The translations under genes were made by a program, and so were the position numbers. DNA of 62,730 nucleotides, counting the filler, from Basidiobolus ranarum (Eukaryota), in assembly GCA_040143965.1 (NCBI GenBank). It is 36 parts of 36 records of this genome, joined end to end, with 100 filler letters (N's around TTAATTAATTAA, not from the genome) between each part and the next. Parts side by side here need not be neighbours in the genome. Positions count along the whole stretch, not along the records: positions 7,003 to 8,652 come from JASJQH010011503.1; 35 more parts are not named here. One strand, written 5' to 3'. The notes beneath the pieces were generated by a model. It saw only the letters and a list, made by a program, of their open reading frames with translations, was not told where the DNA came from and searched no databases. Every line of letters begins with the position of its first letter. The stretch's first letter is position 1. Below, in pieces: positions 1,652 to 61,091 of this stretch.

Positions 1652-1751
1652 NNNNNNNNNNNNNNNNNNNNNNNNNNNNNNNNNNNNNNNNNNNNTTAAT
1701 TAATTAANNNNNNNNNNNNNNNNNNNNNNNNNNNNNNNNNNNNNNNNNNNN
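1652..1751. other. Artificial contig linker (first of 35 identical 100-bp spacers)
   Basis: 44 N + TTAATTAATTAA (stops in all six frames) + 44 N. It recurs about every 1.74-1.75 kb (3403, 5153, 6903 ... 60992). Contig lengths fall steadily from 1651 to 1639 bp. Confidence 0.99.
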
Positions 1752-3402: not shown

Positions 3403-3502
3403 NNNNNNNNNNNNNNNNNNNNNNNNNNNNNNNNNNNNNNNNNNNNTTAATTAATTAANNNNNNNNNNNNNNNNNNNNNNNNNNNNNNNNNNNNNNNNNN
3501 NN

Positions 3503-6902: not shown

Positions 6903-7002
6903 NNNNNNNNNNNNNNNNNNNNNNNNNNNNNNNNNNNNNNNNNNNNTTAATTAATTAANNNNNNNNNNNNNNNNNNNNNNNNNNNNNNNNNNNNNNNNNN
7001 NN

Positions 7003-8048
7003 TGGTCAAATGGCACAAAGCTAATTGTAGGACCAAATAAGTGTTGATTTTTCCTGAGACGAGGATCTCGTTTTAGCTCCTCGCTCCGATAGCTTTGGTG
7101 TTTTAATCCGCATTGGACTTCGTGTGATACCTGCTCGATCAATGATGTAAGGCTCATGGCTGATTTTACAGTGATTCGGATAGGTATAACATTTGATGTC
7201 ATGCCAGGGATATGTCGAATTTCGCCAAAGCGAGCCTTAACTGGGAAGCCTAAAGTGACCTGATCAGCGCCAGTCCAACGGTGAATATATACAGCTATAA
7301 CAGCAATCCAAGCATAGATCAAGTGACGTGGGTCAGAGGCAAGAGAGGAGGCAGACTGAGGAGAGAAATGAATCGTCTGACAAATAGGCAAGTGTGTAGA
7401 GACAGCTTTTTTACTTGTCAGTGTTGCAAGCTCAGGCCAATTCTTACAGTAGTTTAGCCAATAGTCCTGATCTATTGTAAATTGAGTCGAGGCACGATAA
7501 TCAAGATCACTCTGGAGTAAGGTGGATAGGGGCTTCATTAAGCACTTGGCAGTAGTGGTATCATTAACCAGTGCACTATATATCTCAGCGGCGCGTTGCA
7601 AAATCAGTACACCACTATACCCATCAAATAGAATATGATGTGCGCACTGATACCAAAGATATTGGTCTTTTGCTACCTTTAGCAGGGTATATCTAACCTT
7701 CAGGCCATATTGAAGATTTATTGGCTGTGCACAATCAGCTCTCATCCAGGCTTCCGCGGCTTCTCGAGGATTAGGGTTAGTGCTGACGTCGATCAAGGGC
7801 AGTGACCAGTTGAGCGGACCAACGAACTGTTCTATGCCATTTTCTCCATTAACAAATTGAAGTCGTGTACATTCGGCTTCCATTAGTACTTGCAATAAGG
7901 CTCTCTCGAACAACGCCCTATCAATGAAACCAGGAATTTCTGCGTACTGAGCAATATTATAGATAGCGCTTTCGGGGTTGAGTTGTTGTGCCAGCCATAT
8001 TTCAGTTTGCCCAGAGGATAAGGGATACTTTTTTTGGTATGAATCCAT
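7003..8048 (-). CDS. Non-ribosomal peptide synthetase, N-terminal (starter-type) condensation domain, 3' truncated by contig end
   Basis: Intronless frame of about 348 codons with YPLSSGQTEIWLAQQLNPESAIYNIAQY, the catalytic HHILFDG motif, PGMTSNVIPIR and HQSYRSEEL. Confidence 0.93.
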
Positions 8049-8188
8049 TCTTTTCTGAATGCAGTTGTATGAACAAATAATCTATAGAAAGTCAAGGTAA
8101 CGAGATTTTTGTGTGATGCACGATCACCTAGCAATGATTTGCACAGTGCTGTAAATAATGGTTGAACCAAATGGACGGTTCATTGTAA

Positions 8189-8194
8189 TTTATA
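8189..8194 (-). promoter_or_regulatory. Candidate TATA box of the NRPS gene
   Basis: TATAAA on the minus strand about 140 bp upstream of the ATG. No Shine-Dalgarno motif is evident. Confidence 0.35.
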
Positions 8195-8537
8195 AGAATC
8201 ATCACGTGATTCCTTGAAATGGATGGAATGTATTTACATGTATGCGGTGTGATAACGGAGAAAAGAAATCTTTATCTTTATGGCATAGTGATGTAGAGTA
8301 CCAGGGGATGAGAAGTATGACAAGGTTTAGACCCCATTGCTGAAACACTAAACTACCAGACTGAGTACTAAGCACCACATTTTACTTATTTCCACCAGTC
8401 TGAGCATGACGTTTTCAAAAACAAGCTAATACACAATGCAGACCGTCGTTTCCAATTTCTGCATACTTTCCTAAATGTACTCATCAGCTTGGAAAGTTGT
8501 TATTAAAAACATTTGGTCACGTCTATCACATTTACTT

Positions 8538-8629
8538 AATGCTATTGAGTTCAACACACAAAATACTTAGTTTAAGCAAAATAAATGCTATTGAGTTCAA
8601 CACACAAAATACTTAGTTTAAGCAAAATA
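8538..8629. repeat. Perfect 46-bp tandem duplication
   Basis: AATGCTATTGAGTTCAACACACAAAATACTTAGTTTAAGCAAAATA x2. Confidence 0.95.
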
Positions 8630-8753
8630 GGTTGCATAAATATCTATACGATNNNNNNNNNNNNNNNNNNNNNNNNNNNNNNNNNNNNNNNNNNNNTTAA
8701 TTAATTAANNNNNNNNNNNNNNNNNNNNNNNNNNNNNNNNNNNNNNNNNNNNT

Positions 8754-13901: not shown

Positions 13902-14002
13902 NNNNNNNNNNNNNNNNNNNNNNNNNNNNNNNNNNNNNNNNNNNNTTAATTAATTAANNNNNNNNNNNNNNNNNNNNNNNNNNNNNNNNNNNNNNNNNNN
14001 NT

Positions 14003-14404
14003 GGCTATAGACCTCCTGGTGGTGGTGGTCCCCCTGGTGGCTATAGACCTCCAGGCGGTGGTAGTCCCCCAGGTGGGTATAGACCTCCCGGCGGTGGTGG
14101 TCCCCCAGGTGGGTATAGACCTCCTGGGGGTGGTGGTCCTCCTGGTGATTATAGACCTCCTAGTGGTGGTGGTCCTCCAGGTCACAACAGGCCCCCAGGC
14201 GGCGGTGGGCCCCCGGGCTACGATACACCTCCTGGTGGCGATAATCCTCCTGGTGGTGATAATCCTCCCGGTGGCGACAATCCTCCTGATGGCGACTATC
14301 CCCCTGGTAGCGACAATCCTCCTGGTGGTGACAGACCCCCTGGTGGCGACCAACCACCAGGCTACCCACCAACTGGCTATAACGGACGTAATCATTATGG
14401 GTAA
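14003..14404 (+). CDS. Gly/Pro-rich tandem-repeat protein, C-terminal part
   Basis: About six 12-aa units GYRPPGGGGPPG, then about seven 6-aa units DNPPGG, ending YPPTGYNGRNHYG*. Variation between units falls mostly on third codon positions in this frame. Confidence 0.8.
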   Translation, partial: GYRPPGGGGPPGGYRPPGGGSPPGGYRPPGGGGPPGGYRPPGGGGPPGDYRPPSGGGPPGHNRPPGGGGPPGYDTPPGGDNPPGGDNPPGGDNPPDGDYPPGSDNPPGGDRPPGGDQPPGYPPTGYNGRNHYG

Positions 14405-15750
14405 AATAGTGGATATCATAGCAATCACGGTTGTAAGAGTATTGAGAAAACTTAGTATCTTGATCAACCTCTAACCATTCCCGATACACTTATGGTACTG
14501 TCCTTATTAGTGTACGTAATTCATGCTTGTCCATCTGTCTTTCAGCTTAAGCTTACAACGAATAAAGAAATTTTCAACTAACCACTTCGATGTACTTTAA
14601 AACAAACGCGAATCGATTTTTGCTTTTCACTCCGTTCTTATCATAGCTTTCTTGTGTGTGTTGCTCTGGACAGCCGATTACTCTTGATCGTAATTCTATA
14701 TCAAGCTTTACTGATTCCACTTCTCGATCTGTAAAAGCTTGTAAAACCCTGGTGAGCATGGTATGTAGTGCATTATGGTGCCAAGTAACTTAACAGTTGG
14801 CTATTCAACAGATGGGGTGCATAATTAAGCTGCCGAATAGTGTTACATTAATAGATAATTGTCTCGCTTTCATACAAAGGTATTGAATTCAAGCTTCAAT
14901 GATGTTGTTCCTGTTTAGCGTCATAATTCTTTGAATCATACCCTTCCACAATACATCAGTCAAAATACATCGAAATAATGCATTAGGACACTGAGAAACT
15001 TGATTCAATGTCTCATTCTATTAGTTTTGAATGTAGGCCAATAATCACTTTTTCATTGTCAGCATTCATTATAACAGCCAGTATAGCACTGCAGTTAACG
15101 AGAAAAACTTTAAAATTACTGAGCAATCTATTCTATTTTAATTACTTAGAAATTCAAAAGCCTGCTTTTGTTGACTGAATTTATAGTTTGTGTTACTCTA
15201 GTGATTGCCACAAATCTTATCACATACTTATATGTTTGGATCTCTCGAGCAATATTCTCCATGTTGGATGGCGCCTCATACACTATATACATAACACGCA
15301 AGACATGAATATTCGTGTTCTTCACTGTAAGCGATGACTGTTGGTTTGACATATGCATCCTGTCATGATATCAACAACAACAAAACCAGATGAATGGGAA
15401 GAGATTGGTTACACTACAGCATTAGCAGACAGAACTAGTACTTTCAAGCATACTACTCTCGCAATGCTAAACTCTACTTGTAACTGAGTTCTTATCTACA
15501 CATTGAAGTGCCGAAAAGATATATAAGTGAGACTAATTTCCCAGTAGTATATCAAGTTAGCAGTTCCCAATACACCTTCCCAATTGAACTGAATCATGAA
15601 GCTTTTCGCAAGTGCCCTAGTATTATTGCCAGCTGTGCTTGCAATGGCCGNNNNNNNNNNNNNNNNNNNNNNNNNNNNNNNNNNNNNNNNNNNNTTAATT
15701 AATTAANNNNNNNNNNNNNNNNNNNNNNNNNNNNNNNNNNNNNNNNNNNN

Positions 15751-17975: not shown

Positions 17976-18890
17976 AAAGCCAGGTGAATATCAACTGTAA
18001 TAAGTGTACAATCAACTTTAGTTTTGCCCACTGAGTCCACCCACTGTACTCTGCTTCAAAGCTTTGGTAACACTGCCAAAAGTCCAGATACTATGGAGTT
18101 ACCACAGAGATATGGCCAGAATGATGTAGTTAGAAATGCAACTTTGGTCAAACCAGTAAGTCCAGACAACTTTGAGGACATGCAGCTAGATGTTGACCAT
18201 GGTTATTCCAGTACCAATGGTAGTATATCAGAAGTTGAAGAATAAGAAAATGGTTTTGTTACAGACTCTTTGTTATTGGAAAGCATTAGTCCTCTCATAA
18301 CACTTACGGTGAGGAAAGCAGCTTTGAATATTGAGGAGTGGAGAGTTCAATCTAACTTCAGCAACTGAGTGTTTATTGGATCTTTTACGCTCTTACTACA
18401 GTTGATTAACTACTGTTTCTTGCCACAGACCTGGTACAAGTGGAAAACACTTGTCAATTGTATGATGGAGTAACCCTGTGGTGAAATGATACTCTGCATC
18501 AAATTCTTGGTATTTCTGTATCCTAATCAGATTAACAATGTATTAGTAAAATCAGTGATGGTTGTAATACAATGGGAAAAGGAAGCTCCAGAGTATATTA
18601 ACTTTCCTACAAAGAGCTTTTTCCATGTGCTCAGGGGTTTTTGCATTATTTGTTCACAACAACAGCAACAAAACTCAATCAATGGAGTTAGAGTAAGTAC
18701 CTCTATCATTTGGACTAATATGTCTATGTGATATTCTGAGGAGATAGATGAAGATATGCCCATAACAAAAATTAAATCAATTTGATCCAGATTGGATCCA
18801 CCCTTCTGGATTGCAAAACCATCAAAGAACTGTCATAGTATTGATGGCTTGCATATTGCCTGGGATTTTGATGGTGAGACAACAGCTTCT
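17976..18890 (+). mobile_element. CACTA-like transposase fragments (internally deleted) with a nested end B at 18760
   Basis: The N-terminal transposase region is joined directly to the C-terminal region at about 18465, followed by CCATAACAAAAATTAAATCAATTTGATCC. Confidence 0.75.
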
Positions 18891-19147
18891 AAAAAACAAT
18901 CTCTCTCTATCTTTAGAGATTTTAAAACACTTGTGGAGACTGAAACTGGAACTAAAATTGAAAAACTACATTTTAATATTGGTGGAGAATATACTTCAGC
19001 ACTATTTAAGCACTTTTGCAAAGTTCATGGAATTACGCAAGAAACTACTGCCCCCTATTCACCTCAACAAAATGGAGTTGCTGAAAGAGCTAACAGGACT
19101 ATAATAGAAATGGCAAGATCTATGATAAATGCACAAAATTTATCTCA
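18890..19147 (+). mobile_element. Copia integrase core fragment
   Basis: GGEYTS...TAPYSPQQNGVAERANRTIIEMARSM. Confidence 0.92.
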
Positions 19148-20172: not shown

Positions 20173-20895
20173 ATGTCTATCACTAATATTACCAACATTT
20201 TTGCATCCACAGAGAAGTTTGATGGTGAAGACTTTCACATTTGGAAGTTCAAGATGCAAATGGGTGCTAGAAGACAAGGACCTTTGGGGATTTGTTGCTG
20301 GAGAGGAAATAGAGCCAAAGGGACCACCTGGAGCTATCTGTGCCTTTCACAAGAAGCTGAGGAAAGCACTTTCTACACTTTGTCTACACCTCAGAGACTC
20401 TAAATTGAGGCACATACAATCAACCAAAAACATCCAAAATGCTGGGGAAACACTTGAGGGACTATATGAGACTAAAAGTATGGCTAATAGGCAATATCTT
20501 AGGCAAGAATTTTTCTCAATTCAGATGAAAACTGATGATGCTATACCCAATCATATAAATTGGAAAAAAACTATGGCAGATCAGCTCTCATCCATTGGAG
20601 CTCCTCTAAATGACAATTACTTAGTCATGACACTACTTGGAAGCATGCCAGATGAGTTTGAGAAACTCATAATTGCCCTAGAATCAAGATCAGAGCTATT
20701 AACAATAGAACATGTTGGTGCTAGGCTTTTGAATGAAGAATTAAGGAGATCTAATTCTCAGCAAAATAATGCAGAACAGGCATCTTTTGGAGCTGTAAAA
20801 TGTCCAACAGGCTTCAATAATGGTGCTCCTATTAGGAAATTAATCATCTGCAAGTATTGCAAGAAACCAGGCCATTTAATCAAAGATTGCAGAAA
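20173..20895 (+). mobile_element. Copia family A gag (one frameshift), ending in a zinc knuckle
   Basis: EKFDGEDFHIWKFKMQ, LLGSMPDEFE and CKYCKKPGHLIKDC. Confidence 0.92.
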
Positions 20896-22643: not shown

Positions 22644-23153
22644 NNNNNNNNNNNNNNNNNNNNNNNNNNNNNNNNNNNNNNNNNNNNTTAATTAATTAAN
22701 NNNNNNNNNNNNNNNNNNNNNNNNNNNNNNNNNNNNNNNNNNNGGCTAAAGTAATTGAAAATTCCGTTCTTCATGATATCCAAAGTCTAATTACTTTGAG
22801 ACTGTTTACTCGAATGTTGCTTCGTCAATACTGAAAACGTAAATCTCGATGAACTTAGTCAAGATTACGAAAAATTCACCATATCAGCAAAATTACGCTC
22901 CCATCTCTGTTGGAGAAATGAAGCAGAAATGAAGCAGAAATTTCGCTTACTAATTTTTTTGCCTATGACTAATCGTCATTGGATAAACAGTAAAGAAAAT
23001 TGGAAGTTGCCATTGGCTTACTAATAATCAGTGATTGTTTCCGATTTAAGCAGTAGAACAACATACCAATACGTATGCTCTGATGGAGTATAAAGCCATT
23101 ACTCTTACTTACCATTACCTTTATTCACAACTATATTTCTACCATTTTCACAT

Positions 23154-24167
23154 ATGAAAGTAATTTTGCAACAAAAGGGGGGAGACATTTCCGTCCTCGA
23201 AGAGAGCACCCTTCCTAAACCATCCCCTACGGGATCCGACATACTGGTCCGTAACCTCGCTGTTTCTGTAAATCCGGTCGATTACAAAGTACGCTCTGGA
23301 GTTTTCATTCAAACGTATCCTTTGGTCATAGGTTGGGACGGAGCTGGCGTGGTTGAAGCAGTTGGTGAGAATGTTAAACAGTACAAAGTGGGTGATGAAG
23401 TTATCTATTCTGGGTCTGTAATACGTTCAGGTTCCAACTCGGAGTACACCCTGGTCGACGAGCGAATTGTAGGTAGAAAGCCTAAATCTTTGTCTTTTAC
23501 TGATGCGGCAGGTTTGCCTTTGACAGCTCTTACCGCATGGGAAGCGCTCGTGGAACAGCTTGCGATCCCTGTTCCAGAAAGCAAGTCCTCTAAAAATCCT
23601 AAATCGATCTTGATCATCAACGGGGCTGGTGGTGTTGGCTCACTAGCCACACAATTCGCGTCCAAAGTTTTGAATCTCTCCAATGTTGTTGCTACCGCCT
23701 CTCGCCCGGAGACAATTGATTGGTGTAAAAAAATGGGTGCAACACATGTGATTAATCATCGCGAAGATCTCAAACAACAAATAACTCAACTTGGGTTGAC
23801 TGTGGACTACGTATTCATTTGCCATTCTACCGCAAATTACCTCCCGATAGTCCAAGATATTATTAAACCATTTGGACGTATTGTTACCATCGTCGAGGTG
23901 GAAAGCCCCTTACCTTTTACTGACATGTCTAAGTCTTTAAGCTTTTCCTGGGAGTTTATGTTTGCAAAGAGCATGCACAATCACGATATGATTTCACAGT
24001 CTGTGATCTTAAATCGTGTTGCTGATCTTGTTGATTCAGGCGTGATTCTACCAACTGTTACCGAAACGTTGGACTTTTCGTTGGAAGCTCTTCGTGCAGC
24101 TCACAAGAAGGTTGAGGATGGTGTAGTTATAGGAAAAATTGTGTTAGATATGGAAAATTGGGTCTAG
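23154..24167 (+). CDS. Zinc-type alcohol dehydrogenase-like / NADPH:quinone oxidoreductase (MDR superfamily), complete and intronless
   Basis: 337 aa with AVSVNPVDYKVR, GWDGAGVVEAVG, LPLTALTAWEAL, the Rossmann motif INGAGGVGS, KSLSFSWEFMF and IGKIVL. TATAAA lies near 23089. Confidence 0.95.
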   Translation: MKVILQQKGGDISVLEESTLPKPSPTGSDILVRNLAVSVNPVDYKVRSGVFIQTYPLVIGWDGAGVVEAVGENVKQYKVGDEVIYSGSVIRSGSNSEYTLVDERIVGRKPKSLSFTDAAGLPLTALTAWEALVEQLAIPVPESKSSKNPKSILIINGAGGVGSLATQFASKVLNLSNVVATASRPETIDWCKKMGATHVINHREDLKQQITQLGLTVDYVFICHSTANYLPIVQDIIKPFGRIVTIVEVESPLPFTDMSKSLSFSWEFMFAKSMHNHDMISQSVILNRVADLVDSGVILPTVTETLDFSLEALRAAHKKVEDGVVIGKIVLDMENWV

Positions 24168-24524
24168 CGATTCCATTTACCATTTGTCTTTTCTGCGTTT
24201 TTGTCAGGTACAGTGTTTGAATCTAAAATGATATGAATTAAAAAAATTAATTAAACATTTCATAAAATCAATCGCAAAAGATTGGAAATAAGTGAAGACA
24301 CATGGCAAAAGAAACTTACTCAAATATTTAGTGTGGCGATTGTGTTTAGTGTAGCGATAACCACACAGGATTTGATAACCACACAGGAATANNNNNNNNN
24401 NNNNNNNNNNNNNNNNNNNNNNNNNNNNNNNNNNNTTAATTAATTAANNNNNNNNNNNNNNNNNNNNNNNNNNNNNNNNNNNNNNNNNNNNAGTTGAAAT
24501 TAACTTGTTGGGTTTTAATTTCAG

Positions 24525-34167: not shown

Positions 34168-34867
34168 ATGGTTGCCATTAAGCTTCTTACTACCATCTCA
34201 CTTTTGGCTGCCACTTCGATGGCTTGGGTTTGGCCATTGCCTGCGAAGATGGATGTTGGCCATAACATCATTCGCTTGAGCAGAAATGAACTTGATATTT
34301 CTATCAAAGCCCCAGCAGGAGCTGATATTCTCGAGAGAGCTGTCCATCGTTACAAGAAGTTGATCTTCACCAAAGGTGAGTTCAGTTCCCTCCTTAACCC
34401 AGTCGAGAAGACAGTGTTCCCCATTCCTACTACTTCCGTCCCCGTTCATCAGCTTGCACCCAAGGGCAAGTACCCTACACTGACTGGACTCAGCATTCAG
34501 GTCAGTGGCCACAACACCAAACTCAATCTCGACACCGATGAATCCTACACTATCGATGTTCCTGCACGTGGTGGCAAGGCTACCATCAAGGCCAAGAGTG
34601 TGTACGGAGCTCTCCGTGGACTCGAATCATTCTCCCAATTGGTCAAGTGGACTGCTGAGGCCAATCAGTACCGCATTCCATTCGCTCCAGTCTCTATTTC
34701 TGACAAGCCAGTCTTCGTCCATCGTGGTGTGATGATTGATTCATCCCGTAACTTCCTCAAGATCGAAGATATCAAGCGTACTCTAGATGCTATGTCTTAC
34801 AACAAGCTCAATGTTCTTCACTGGCATATCATTGATCAACACAGTTTCCCACTTAAAACCAAGACCT
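34168..34867 (+). CDS. Beta-N-acetylhexosaminidase (GH20), N-terminal part, secreted
   Basis: Signal peptide followed by VWPLP, DESYTI, YGALRGLESFSQL, HRGVMIDSSRNF and NKLNVLHWHIIDQHSFP. TATAAAA lies near 34110. Confidence 0.95.
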
Positions 34868-45428: not shown

Positions 45429-47070
45429 CGGATAAAAGATTGCAAACTTAGAAATTACAACAAAAGTGAGAAGTCAGAACAAGCAAATCAGGTTTCAACC
45501 AAAGAAGAAGTTTTATTCACTTCTGACCTATCAGTGACCTCAGAACCAGACTGTAGGTTGTGGTATATTCATTCTGGAGCCTCTCAAGGATATAGCTTTA
45601 ATTTTGATCAAAATGGCTGTACAATCAGGGATCAAAAAGGGAATTACATGGCTTCTGGAGTTAAGCAAAATAGCTTATATAAACTTCATTATATTAGGCC
45701 AATATATGCACAAGTTAATAGTGCCACAGCTGAAGAGTTAGACTGGAAAATCTGGCATAGGAGATTGGGTCATCTAGGAGCTGAAAATATGAGAAATTTA
45801 ATCAAAAACAAGATGGTTTTGGGACTAAATTTCGTAATTCCACCGGATCTGGAGCTATGTGAAGGTTGCCTATATGGTAGGCAACACAGACAGCTGTTTG
45901 CAGGCTCTGGAATGAGCAATATTAATGAGAAATTGGGCCTGATACACTCAGATCTGTGTGGCCCAATGCAGACAAAATCCTTAGGCAGAAAAAGGTATTT
46001 TATGACCTTTATTGATGATAAGACAAAGTATACTTGGGTGTACTTTCTGGCCAGTAAGGATGAAGCCTTTGATACCTTCAAGAGGTTCAAAGCAATGGTG
46101 GAGACTAAAACAGGTCTAAAGATTAAGATTATCCATACTGACAATAGAGGGGAATATATCTCAAAACCCTTCTCTAACTTCTACTTAACACATAGGATAA
46201 AATAGCAGCCTACAGTGCCATATTCTCCACAGCAGAAAGGAGTAGTAGAATATGCAAACAGATCAATCATGGAAAAGACAAGAACAATGCTTTGTGATCA
46301 AGATTTACCAAAATAGTTCTGGGCTGAAATGGTTGCAATTGCAATATATATTAGGAATAGATGTCCTGCTAGGTCTCTATAAGCTATGTCAAATTATCAA
46401 ACATGGTTTGCAATGAGACCTGATGTGGCTAATCTCAGAGTTTTTGGAATTACCACATATGTAATGATTACAGACCAGAAGAGATCAAAATTAGACCAAA
46501 AAAGCAAGAAATGTCTTTTTTTTGGGATATTGTGATGGTACAAAAGGGTACAGACTGTATGACACTGAAAATAAGAAGCTAATCAAGTTGAGGGATGTGG
46601 AATATGCTGTAGAAGTAAATTTTTTTATCAAAACAATCCTGGATCAAGAAAAACAACCAAAAATTGATGAAACTTCTGTTTCTCACCAGATCCTGATGAG
46701 TGAAAAAAATATTGAAAACTCTTTGCCCACAGTCTCCTCAACCAAACCTAAGGTGTTTTCATTGCCTAAATTGGTACCAGATGTTGTAGTGCCAATTTCC
46801 CATCTTAGGACACACAATTGGATGAGATCTCTGCCTGATTACTAATCTCACACTAGCCAAAAGGAGCCCAGTGCTAATTTAGCCTTTTATGATGAGCCCA
46901 AATCAGTACAGGAGGCTATGGAGATTCCCAACACAAAGTTTTGGAGTGCTGCAATGACAGAGGAGTATCAGTCACTCATAGATAATCAAACTTGGACTTT
47001 GGTTAAGTTACCTGATGACCAAAAATCAATTGGATGCAAATGGGGGTTTAAAGTTAAACAGCAAGCTGAT
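45429..47070 (+). mobile_element. Copia pol (deleted protease, GAG-pre-integrase, integrase, RT start), degenerate
   Basis: WYIHSGASQ, WHRRLGH, HSDLCGPM, FIDDKTKYTWVYF, GYCDGTKGYRLYD and IGCKWGFKVK. Confidence 0.95.
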
Positions 47071-60991: not shown

Positions 60992-61091
60992 NNNNNNNNN
61001 NNNNNNNNNNNNNNNNNNNNNNNNNNNNNNNNNNNTTAATTAATTAANNNNNNNNNNNNNNNNNNNNNNNNNNNNNNNNNNNNNNNNNNNN

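Follow-up and report, generated by a model that had tools for sequence, protein, structure and literature searches.

A candidate RzmA-type starter condensation domain of probable bacterial descent encoded by an NRPS gene fragment from Basidiobolus ranarum

The NRPS fragment and its contig

The window analysed here is a 62,730-base stretch of DNA from the Basidiobolus ranarum assembly GCA_040143965.1, and it contains the 5′ part of a gene for a nonribosomal peptide synthetase (NRPS), whose N-terminal condensation (C) domain is the subject of this report. The window is composed of 36 separate pieces of 1,639–1,651 bp each, ordered by length, with 35 identical 100-bp artificial spacers (N44-TTAATTAATTAA-N44) between them. 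The NRPS fragment is confined to the fifth piece (1,650 bp; Table 1). Since the window is a series of spacer-joined pieces of one assembly, the DNA outside the fifth piece is physically unlinked to the NRPS gene, and arguments from neighbouring genes across the spacers are therefore invalid. The fungal-looking contig in which the original prediction had placed the gene proved to be an artefact of this joining. A tblastn search of the window, using full-length relatives as queries, found no other NRPS fragment and none of the adenylation (A), thiolation (T), and thioesterase (TE) domains.

The orientation and extent first proposed for the gene had to be revised: it lies on the minus strand, where an open reading frame (ORF) runs from the predicted ATG to the contig end through 348 codons without a stop or frameshift. 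The coding sequence (CDS) is open at the contig end, and the final 90 or so residues of the domain, as well as every domain behind it, fall outside the contig. Residues 5–344 matched positions 2–356 of the 456-position Condensation profile (Pfam PF00668) with an E value of 1.1e-45 and 156.6 bits against a cut-off of 30.6, and the catalytic motif HHILFDG is present, in agreement with the expectation that such a C domain opens the ORF. The gene had been described as an intronless NRPS. No intron interrupts the 1,044 bp of the C domain, but the visible part amounts to 348 codons of a single domain with no A, T, or TE domain, and the description holds for this part.

An in-frame stop lies 11 codons upstream of the predicted ATG, which in the alignment comes to lie only a few positions from where RzmA, the homologue P0002, and P0313 (the B. 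meristosporus protein ORX94939.1) start. The upstream frames do not exceed 68 amino acids and nothing coding precedes the C domain within the contig, as expected for a starter C (Cs) domain; a further exon beyond the contig end is conceivable. The 604 bp upstream of the ATG are poorer in GC than the CDS (34.6% versus 43.9%) and presumably contain the promoter and the 5′ untranslated region (UTR). The originally reported features of this region, namely about 600 bp of AT-rich non-coding DNA, a TATAAA, and the lack of a Shine–Dalgarno (SD) motif, were all recovered: TATAAA occurs 146 nt before the ATG as a consensus match only, and no SD-like motif of the GAGG/AGGA/GGAG type was found within the last 25 nt before the ATG. 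A search of this region for sigma-70-like sites on the strand of the gene gave none.

Table 1. Features of the NRPS-bearing contig and of other pieces; positions count along the whole window.
Feature	Position	Strand	Basis or remark
NRPS-bearing contig (fifth piece)	7003–8652		
5′ part of NRPS CDS, residues 1–348 of the N-terminal starter-type (Cs) domain	7003–8048	minus	Translation, Pfam, PDB match, homologues
Gly146, corresponding to RzmA R148 ('entry gate' of acyl pocket)	7611–7613	minus	Alignment
Catalytic motif HHILFDG (HHxxxDG), residues 137–143	7620–7640	minus	Direct sequence read; aligns to RzmA H139–G145
Ala136, corresponding to RzmA Y138 (acyl-pocket residue)	7641–7643	minus	Alignment
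Gln34, corresponding to RzmA Q36	7947–7949	minus	Alignment
Predicted start codon ATG	8046–8048	minus	First ATG after in-frame stop at 8082–8084
Upstream non-coding region, 604 bp, presumed promoter and 5′ UTR	8049–8652	minus	34.6% GC, no frame above 68 amino acids
TATAAA, 146 nt before ATG	8189–8194	minus	Consensus match only
Perfect tandem duplication in NRPS upstream region, 46-bp unit × 2	8538–8629	none	
Artificial spacer 5′ of NRPS piece	6903–7002	none	N44-TTAATTAATTAA-N44; joins unrelated contig
Artificial spacer 3′ of NRPS piece	8653–8752	none	Joins next unrelated contig
Spacers across the window	1652–1751, 3403–3502, ... 60992–61091		100 bp each
Zinc-type alcohol dehydrogenase/quinone reductase, intronless, complete, 337 amino acids	23154–24167		Contig 22744–24391
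Copia-type LTR retrotransposon fragments	18792–19147, 20201–20895, 45534–46205		Three contigs; gag PF14223 (E 7e-36), GAG-pre-integrase, integrase core
GH20 beta-hexosaminidase, N-terminal part	34168–34867		Hydrophobic N-terminus; runs past contig end
Long overlapping ORFs	13946–14474	both	Contig 14002–15650, 42.4% GC

Relatives and type of the condensation domain

The best matches over all PDB chains were the three entries of RzmA-Cs (7C1K, 7C1H, and 7C1P), the Cs domain of the rhizomide synthetase from Mycetohabitans rhizoxinica HKI 454 (Zhong et al. 2021, PMC7804268). The phmmer alignment (E 1e-104) covered query residues 7–348 without a gap, and 164 of its 342 positions were identical (48.0%). 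The 7C1H sequence corresponds to the N-terminus of RBRH_RS12370, which is encoded on pBRH01. Weaker matches were obtained with ObiF1 (7e-45), CDA-PS1 C1 (3e-41), EntF (1.5e-33), and VibH (9e-20), and the elongation, epimerization-linked, and other C domains in the PDB scored at most 64 bits. The opening strings quoted in the original prediction are present and align to RzmA-Cs.

A search of proteins of 610–2,000 amino acids yielded 44 sequences among 3,866 candidates with E values passing 1e-3. The closest was the partial B. ranarum protein KAK9693534.1 (894 amino acids, 73% identity), followed by proteins from Mycoavidus sp. HKI (55%), 'Linnemannia gamsii' (54%), Mycoavidus sp. SF9855 (51%), and 'Podila'; many Mycetohabitans proteins also appeared, with 40–49% identity. 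Among longer proteins, reached via the B. ranarum protein, ORX94939.1 of B. meristosporus CBS 931.73 (2,352 amino acids) was 64% identical (219/344). A tblastn search against plasmids returned 782 records, the top nine of which were Mycetohabitans megaplasmids with 48–49% identity. The protein and plasmid searches thus bear out the proposed likeness to Mycetohabitans and Basidiobolus NRPSs. A search of genome contigs with the window protein alone gave one distant locus (26% identity) in a metagenome-assembled genome of Roseobacteraceae, and the ranking of protein representatives was dominated by multi-module NRPSs with summed C domains, being useful for four short representatives only.

A maximum-likelihood (ML) tree of 59 segments was constructed with IQ-TREE (LG+C20 PMSF). 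Its rows were the best-matching C-domain segments of 56 proteins, named and unnamed, picked from the match lists, with an outgroup of three C domains from internal positions in RzmA and DhbF. The references were RzmA and EntF, taken from plasmid and E. coli collections, and DhbF, taken from the named database matches, and the sampling was made without SrfA-A, CDA-PS1, HolA, and MxcG. RzmA is the sole biochemically characterized Cs member in the tree. The window sequence grouped with the B. ranarum protein (support 100/97) and then with the B. meristosporus protein (100/100, stem 0.30). This Basidiobolus trio lay inside a 36-row clade (100/97) together with RzmA-Cs, other Mycetohabitans sequences, Mycoavidus, and Paraburkholderia youngii. 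Outside this clade, the N-terminal C domains of DhbF (C1), EntF, Actinobacteria, Vibrio, and Solibacter formed an unresolved comb, and the internal C domains, including those of the LCL type, were separated by a branch of 2.05. The window domain therefore groups with the one characterized Cs domain in the tree and apart from the LCL-type and aryl-capping domains. A starter type had been predicted and a phylogeny proposed as its check; both the best solved relative and the tree bear this assignment out, and the domain did not fall among those of the LCL type.

The window domain shares with RzmA-Cs the N-terminal position and the HHxxxDG motif. All 33 columns that are invariant over a 19-row alignment (A1, window included) carry the family residue in the window sequence, as do most of the near-invariant ones. 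Judged by its sequence, the gene product opens with an intact Cs domain of the RzmA/HolA type.

The aryl-capping C domains of the DhbF, EntF, and MxcG kind are likewise N-terminal and represent sister groups of the RzmA clade in one well-separated superclade (branch 2.05). We weighed whether the window encodes such a domain, which would belong to a catecholate-siderophore synthetase and use 2,3-dihydroxybenzoyl delivered by an aryl carrier protein in place of a fatty acyl-CoA. The best NCBIfam models for the window sequence were indeed MxcG (264 bits) and EntF (134 bits), a point against its assignment to the Cs type, although the cut-offs are 2300 and 2400, respectively, and the query was one partial domain compared with multi-domain models. 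DhbF C1 is 39% identical, ORX94939.1 has the domain order of DhbF, and Basidiobolus shows siderophore activity according to Tabima et al. (2020, PMC7466969). RzmA-Cs, however, gave the same NCBIfam ranking (MxcG, 406 bits; EntF, 193 bits), and because this domain is a proven acyl-CoA user, the ranking is uninformative on aryl capping. Identity with MxcG or EntF according to NCBIfam was dropped as a diagnostic after this calibration. DhbF and EntF (28% identical to the window) are both outside the 100/97 clade, and a tree in which DhbF and EntF share a clade with the three Basidiobolus sequences was rejected by the approximately unbiased (AU) test (delta lnL 98, p 3.6e-6). In addition, position 36 (RzmA numbering) is glutamine in 36 of the 36 rows of the RzmA clade, as opposed to glutamate in DhbF and histidine in EntF. 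The second C domain of ORX94939.1 resembles the dual epimerization/condensation (E/C) domains found in Burkholderiaceae lipopeptide NRPSs and is only 24% identical to DhbF C2. An aryl-capping function is thus very unlikely, and a starter domain of the RzmA type accounts better for these results.

A second B. ranarum paralogue (P0161, KAK9768550.1) and two Mycetohabitans proteins (P0018 and P0319) in the same clade carry HRxxxDE instead of HHxxxDG. They may constitute a distinct, possibly non-canonical Cs subtype, and the occurrence of this motif in both the fungus and the bacteria hints, as far as the sequences go, at a second transfer.

Acyl pocket and predicted activity

The difference of the window domain from RzmA-Cs is most marked in the acyl pocket. 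As described by Zhong et al. (PMC7804268), the CoA arm occupies the donor side of the tunnel in RzmA-Cs, H140 positions the acyl carbonyl and the acceptor amine, and the acyl chain bends into a pocket of the N-lobe, with R148 forming the gate of this pocket and Q36, Q136, Y138, and M143 its lining. The R148G mutation changed the acyl group of the product from C2 to C8, its combination with Y138A or Q36G extended the acyl group to C10–C12, and triple mutants reached C14–C16 (PMC7804268). In the alignment, residue n of RzmA corresponds to residue n−2 of the window protein. Q36, Q136, and G145 are conserved (the latter two as Q134 and G143), and M143 is replaced with F141. On the acceptor side, P271 and S287 are retained as proline and serine, and T289 is replaced with valine. 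The pocket-closing residues Y138 and R148 are replaced with Ala136 and Gly146, respectively. The three Basidiobolus proteins (window, B. ranarum, and B. meristosporus) have alanine, methionine, and valine at position 138, and glycine, alanine, and glycine at position 148, all of which are small or non-aromatic. KAK9693534.1 and ORX94939.1, which are uncharacterized NRPSs already in the databases, further resemble the window protein in the WYQC-x-HHI context of the motif.

These observations lead us to infer, by analogy with RzmA, that the domain would act as an N-acyltransferase that depends on acyl-CoA and whose pocket admits medium or long chains. An acyl-CoA would be bound at the Cs donor site, and the first amino acid, held on the carrier domain of module 1, would receive the acyl group on its alpha-amino group, with His138 of HHILFDG positioning both substrates. 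Because the residues that close the RzmA pocket are alanine and glycine here, acetyl specificity is not expected, and the donor is more likely to be a medium- or long-chain fatty acyl group (about C8–C12 or longer), if the effects of the RzmA mutations carry over.

This prediction presupposes that the domain is not a non-catalytic or decaying remnant, such as a pseudogene fragment or a structural Cs domain like those of the Mortierella alpina synthetases MalA, MpcA, and MpbA. According to PMC9365243 and a preprint on Mortierella, the Cs-like N-termini of these three synthetases are truncated or devoid of the HH motif, are inactive, and do not cluster with the bacterial acyl-transferring Cs domains. 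They resemble the window domain in being N-terminal C-type domains of bacterial-like NRPSs from an early-diverging fungus. In favour of a remnant, one member of a pair of candidate gene models in B. meristosporus was not expressed according to Tabima et al. (PMC7466969), the second B. ranarum paralogue carries HRxxxDE, and only 348 codons are visible. In contrast to the Mortierella domains, the window Cs is intact, is full-length as far as visible, and clusters with RzmA-Cs. The conserved catalytic motif and acceptor-site residues, the gapless alignment, and the uninterrupted frame, together with the invariant columns described above, make a remnant unlikely, and we favour a working domain.

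The architecture downstream of the Cs domain was examined through the homologues. In P0002 and P0313 (ORX94939.1) the C domain is followed by an A domain, and the Pfam order of ORX94939.1 as a whole is C-A-T-C-A-T-TE. Its second C domain was 63% identical to the RzmA domain at residues 3147–3613, which has the dual E/C motifs, and 23–24% identical to the LCL domains of RzmA and DhbF. The second C domain of ORX94939.1 carries HH[I/L]xxxxGD and HH[I/L]x[G/I]DH, which are given as motifs of dual E/C domains in the Mortierella preprint. Our guess, by analogy with this homologue, is that the full enzyme would be Cs-A-T-E/C-A-T-TE and would make an N-acyl dipeptide (N-acyl-D-Xaa-Yaa). The name lipopeptide synthetase given to the gene in the original prediction goes further than the one domain on which it was based. 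For comparison, RzmA comprises 7,658 amino acids by its gene coordinates, whereas the window domain is known here from 348 codons.

ORX94939.1 contains an identical 146-residue stretch in its two A domains (residues 451–596 and 1520–1665), which are 73% identical overall. This could reflect a recent intragenic conversion or an assembly artefact.

Origin of the gene

The best relatives outside Basidiobolus are bacterial, and the Basidiobolus sequences nest in a bacterial clade, as expected for an NRPS gained by horizontal transfer; none of the Basidiobolus proteins is more than 55% identical to any bacterial protein found. The base composition of the gene agrees with that of the host. GC content and GC at third codon positions (GC3) were 43.9% and 39.4% in the NRPS CDS, 44.3% and 41.7% in the alcohol dehydrogenase (ADH) gene on another piece, and 57% and 62% in the homologous DNA of rzmA (RzmA-Cs). 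In trinucleotide deviation, the NRPS contig ranked sixth among the 36 pieces, below the ADH and hexosaminidase contigs. Bacterial ancestry and host-like composition together fit horizontal acquisition. This composition and the homologues in other Basidiobolus assemblies fit a fungal-resident gene but are not proof of it. The proposal of a horizontally acquired and domesticated gene is thus supported in part, as regards relatives and composition.

We therefore considered whether the contig itself is bacterial, derived from a contaminant or an undescribed endosymbiont, in which case the fragment would be the start of an ordinary bacterial lipopeptide NRPS. The family of the NRPS and its Cs domain is otherwise bacterial, and the contig of 1.65 kb carries the NRPS fragment only, with no host gene. 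Entries of the same clade with fungal labels give a precedent. The NRPSs labelled Linnemannia gamsii and Podila verticillata (P0004, P0007, P0315, and P0317, and the clusters of P0005, P0012, and P0054) cluster at 90% identity with proteins of Mycoavidus or Glomeribacter, and for this reason they are probably of endosymbiont origin. Apophysomyces-labelled NRPSs interleave with Mycetohabitans on short branches of the tree. By these sequence relationships, all three groups are likely to be endosymbiont contigs within fungal assemblies. The composition of the window gene, however, matches host genes and is far from that of rzmA, and its gene-free, AT-rich upstream region has neither an SD-like motif nor a sigma-70-like site. 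Its nearest relatives come from two other Basidiobolus assemblies and form the 100/100 clade with the stem of 0.30; one of them, ORX94939.1, is encoded on a 137-kb contig. Moreover, Tabima et al. (PMC7466969) place such genes at host coverage amid fungal genes. A bacterial contig is accordingly quite unlikely.

We consider it probable that the fragment belongs to a nuclear Basidiobolus NRPS gene of beta-proteobacterial (Burkholderiaceae-type) descent, with a fungal base composition and an intact Cs domain using a medium- or long-chain acyl donor. The gene would have descended from a beta-proteobacterial NRPS of the Burkholderiaceae kind, its base composition having shifted to the fungal one. 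Several points weigh against this interpretation or parts of it. The chain-length assignment is based on engineered mutants of RzmA, a 48%-identical protein, there being no characterized natural member with alanine and glycine at the two positions, and the donor could be an acyl-ACP instead of an acyl-CoA. One incomplete domain is visible, and beyond it the gene could break off, contain introns, or be non-functional. In the tree, the bootstrap was incompletely settled (correlation 0.968) and the window row had an odd amino-acid make-up, and the group rejected by the AU test was picked after the tree had been viewed. The AlphaFold2 model built from the 19-row alignment was too poor for use (mean pLDDT 53.7, pTM 0.41), and nothing was drawn from it. 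The contig carries no host gene, which leaves a low-GC contaminant formally conceivable. The identities among the Basidiobolus proteins are discordant: for the NRPS, B. ranarum is the nearer relative (73%, as opposed to 64% for B. meristosporus), whereas the ADH shows the reverse (70% versus 79%). Because of these different orders, orthology among the three Basidiobolus NRPSs is not established.

That Basidiobolus possesses NRPSs of bacterial origin was noted in the original prediction and is established. Tabima et al. (2020, PMC7466969) report an enrichment of the NRPSs of Basidiobolus in bacterial clades, one of them 'surfactin-like', and beta-proteobacterial best matches for many of these NRPSs, such as two models with two A domains each, 372991, which is highly expressed, and 298977, which is not expressed. 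Their candidates for horizontal transfer lie at host coverage among fungal genes, have host-like composition, and are intronless in 61% of cases. The 'surfactin-like' NRPSs and the window gene agree in genus, inferred donor class, and host-like composition. That study classified A domains only, and the terms 'starter' and 'C-domain' do not occur in it, whereas the window piece holds a C domain only. Among the matches listed from the literature searched, at the level of titles and abstracts, no Basidiobolus lipopeptide was described. Apart from the Mortierella preprint, no description combining Basidiobolus with starter condensation or lipoinitiation was found, and ORX94939 was unnamed in the papers found. 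An intact RzmA-type Cs domain with an open pocket in Basidiobolus thus appears to be undescribed in the literature searched.

Basidiobolus, a member of the Zoopagomycota, lives in the gut of amphibians and reptiles and occasionally causes disease in humans. To our knowledge, it is not a recognized host of endofungal bacteria of the Burkholderiaceae type, and no early-diverging fungus is known to use Cs lipoinitiation, the Cs-like domains described from such fungi being inactive. A more far-reaching scenario would be that a bacterium related to the endofungal Burkholderiaceae (Mycoavidus, Glomeribacter, and Mycetohabitans) was the source of a working lipoinitiation NRPS, taken up before at least three Basidiobolus lineages split, and that the Cs domain is active and loads a long fatty acyl group through the open Ala136/Gly146 pocket, which would make its product the first Cs-initiated N-fatty-acyl peptide of an early-diverging fungus. 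This scenario is doubtful as a whole. If it were true, the early uptake would point to a former bacterial association of a Zoopagomycota fungus, and activity of the Cs domain in the fungus would mean that Basidiobolus produces N-acylated peptides via the bacterial lipoinitiation route. With the natural alanine and glycine in the pocket, the rules on chain length obtained with engineered RzmA could also be tested directly. The gain in knowledge is nevertheless incremental, because the bacterial source of Basidiobolus NRPSs was already established.

The other pieces of the window contain a few further features (Table 1). The ADH shares 79% identity with a protein of B. meristosporus and 70% with one of B. 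ranarum, with other fungi following at 53–55%. By these identities the DNA would be that of a Basidiobolus, or a very close relative, distinct from both B. meristosporus CBS 931.73 and the B. ranarum already sequenced. B. meristosporus has at least four paralogues of it (79, 71, 70, and 54%), and beyond the few fungal ones the matches at about 50% were mostly bacterial or metagenomic. The hydrophobic N-terminus of the GH20 beta-hexosaminidase fragment may be a signal peptide. The long overlapping ORFs, found on both strands, have a repetitive translation with runs of threonine, arginine, valine, and isoleucine, and probably represent a degenerate tandem DNA repeat and not a gene.

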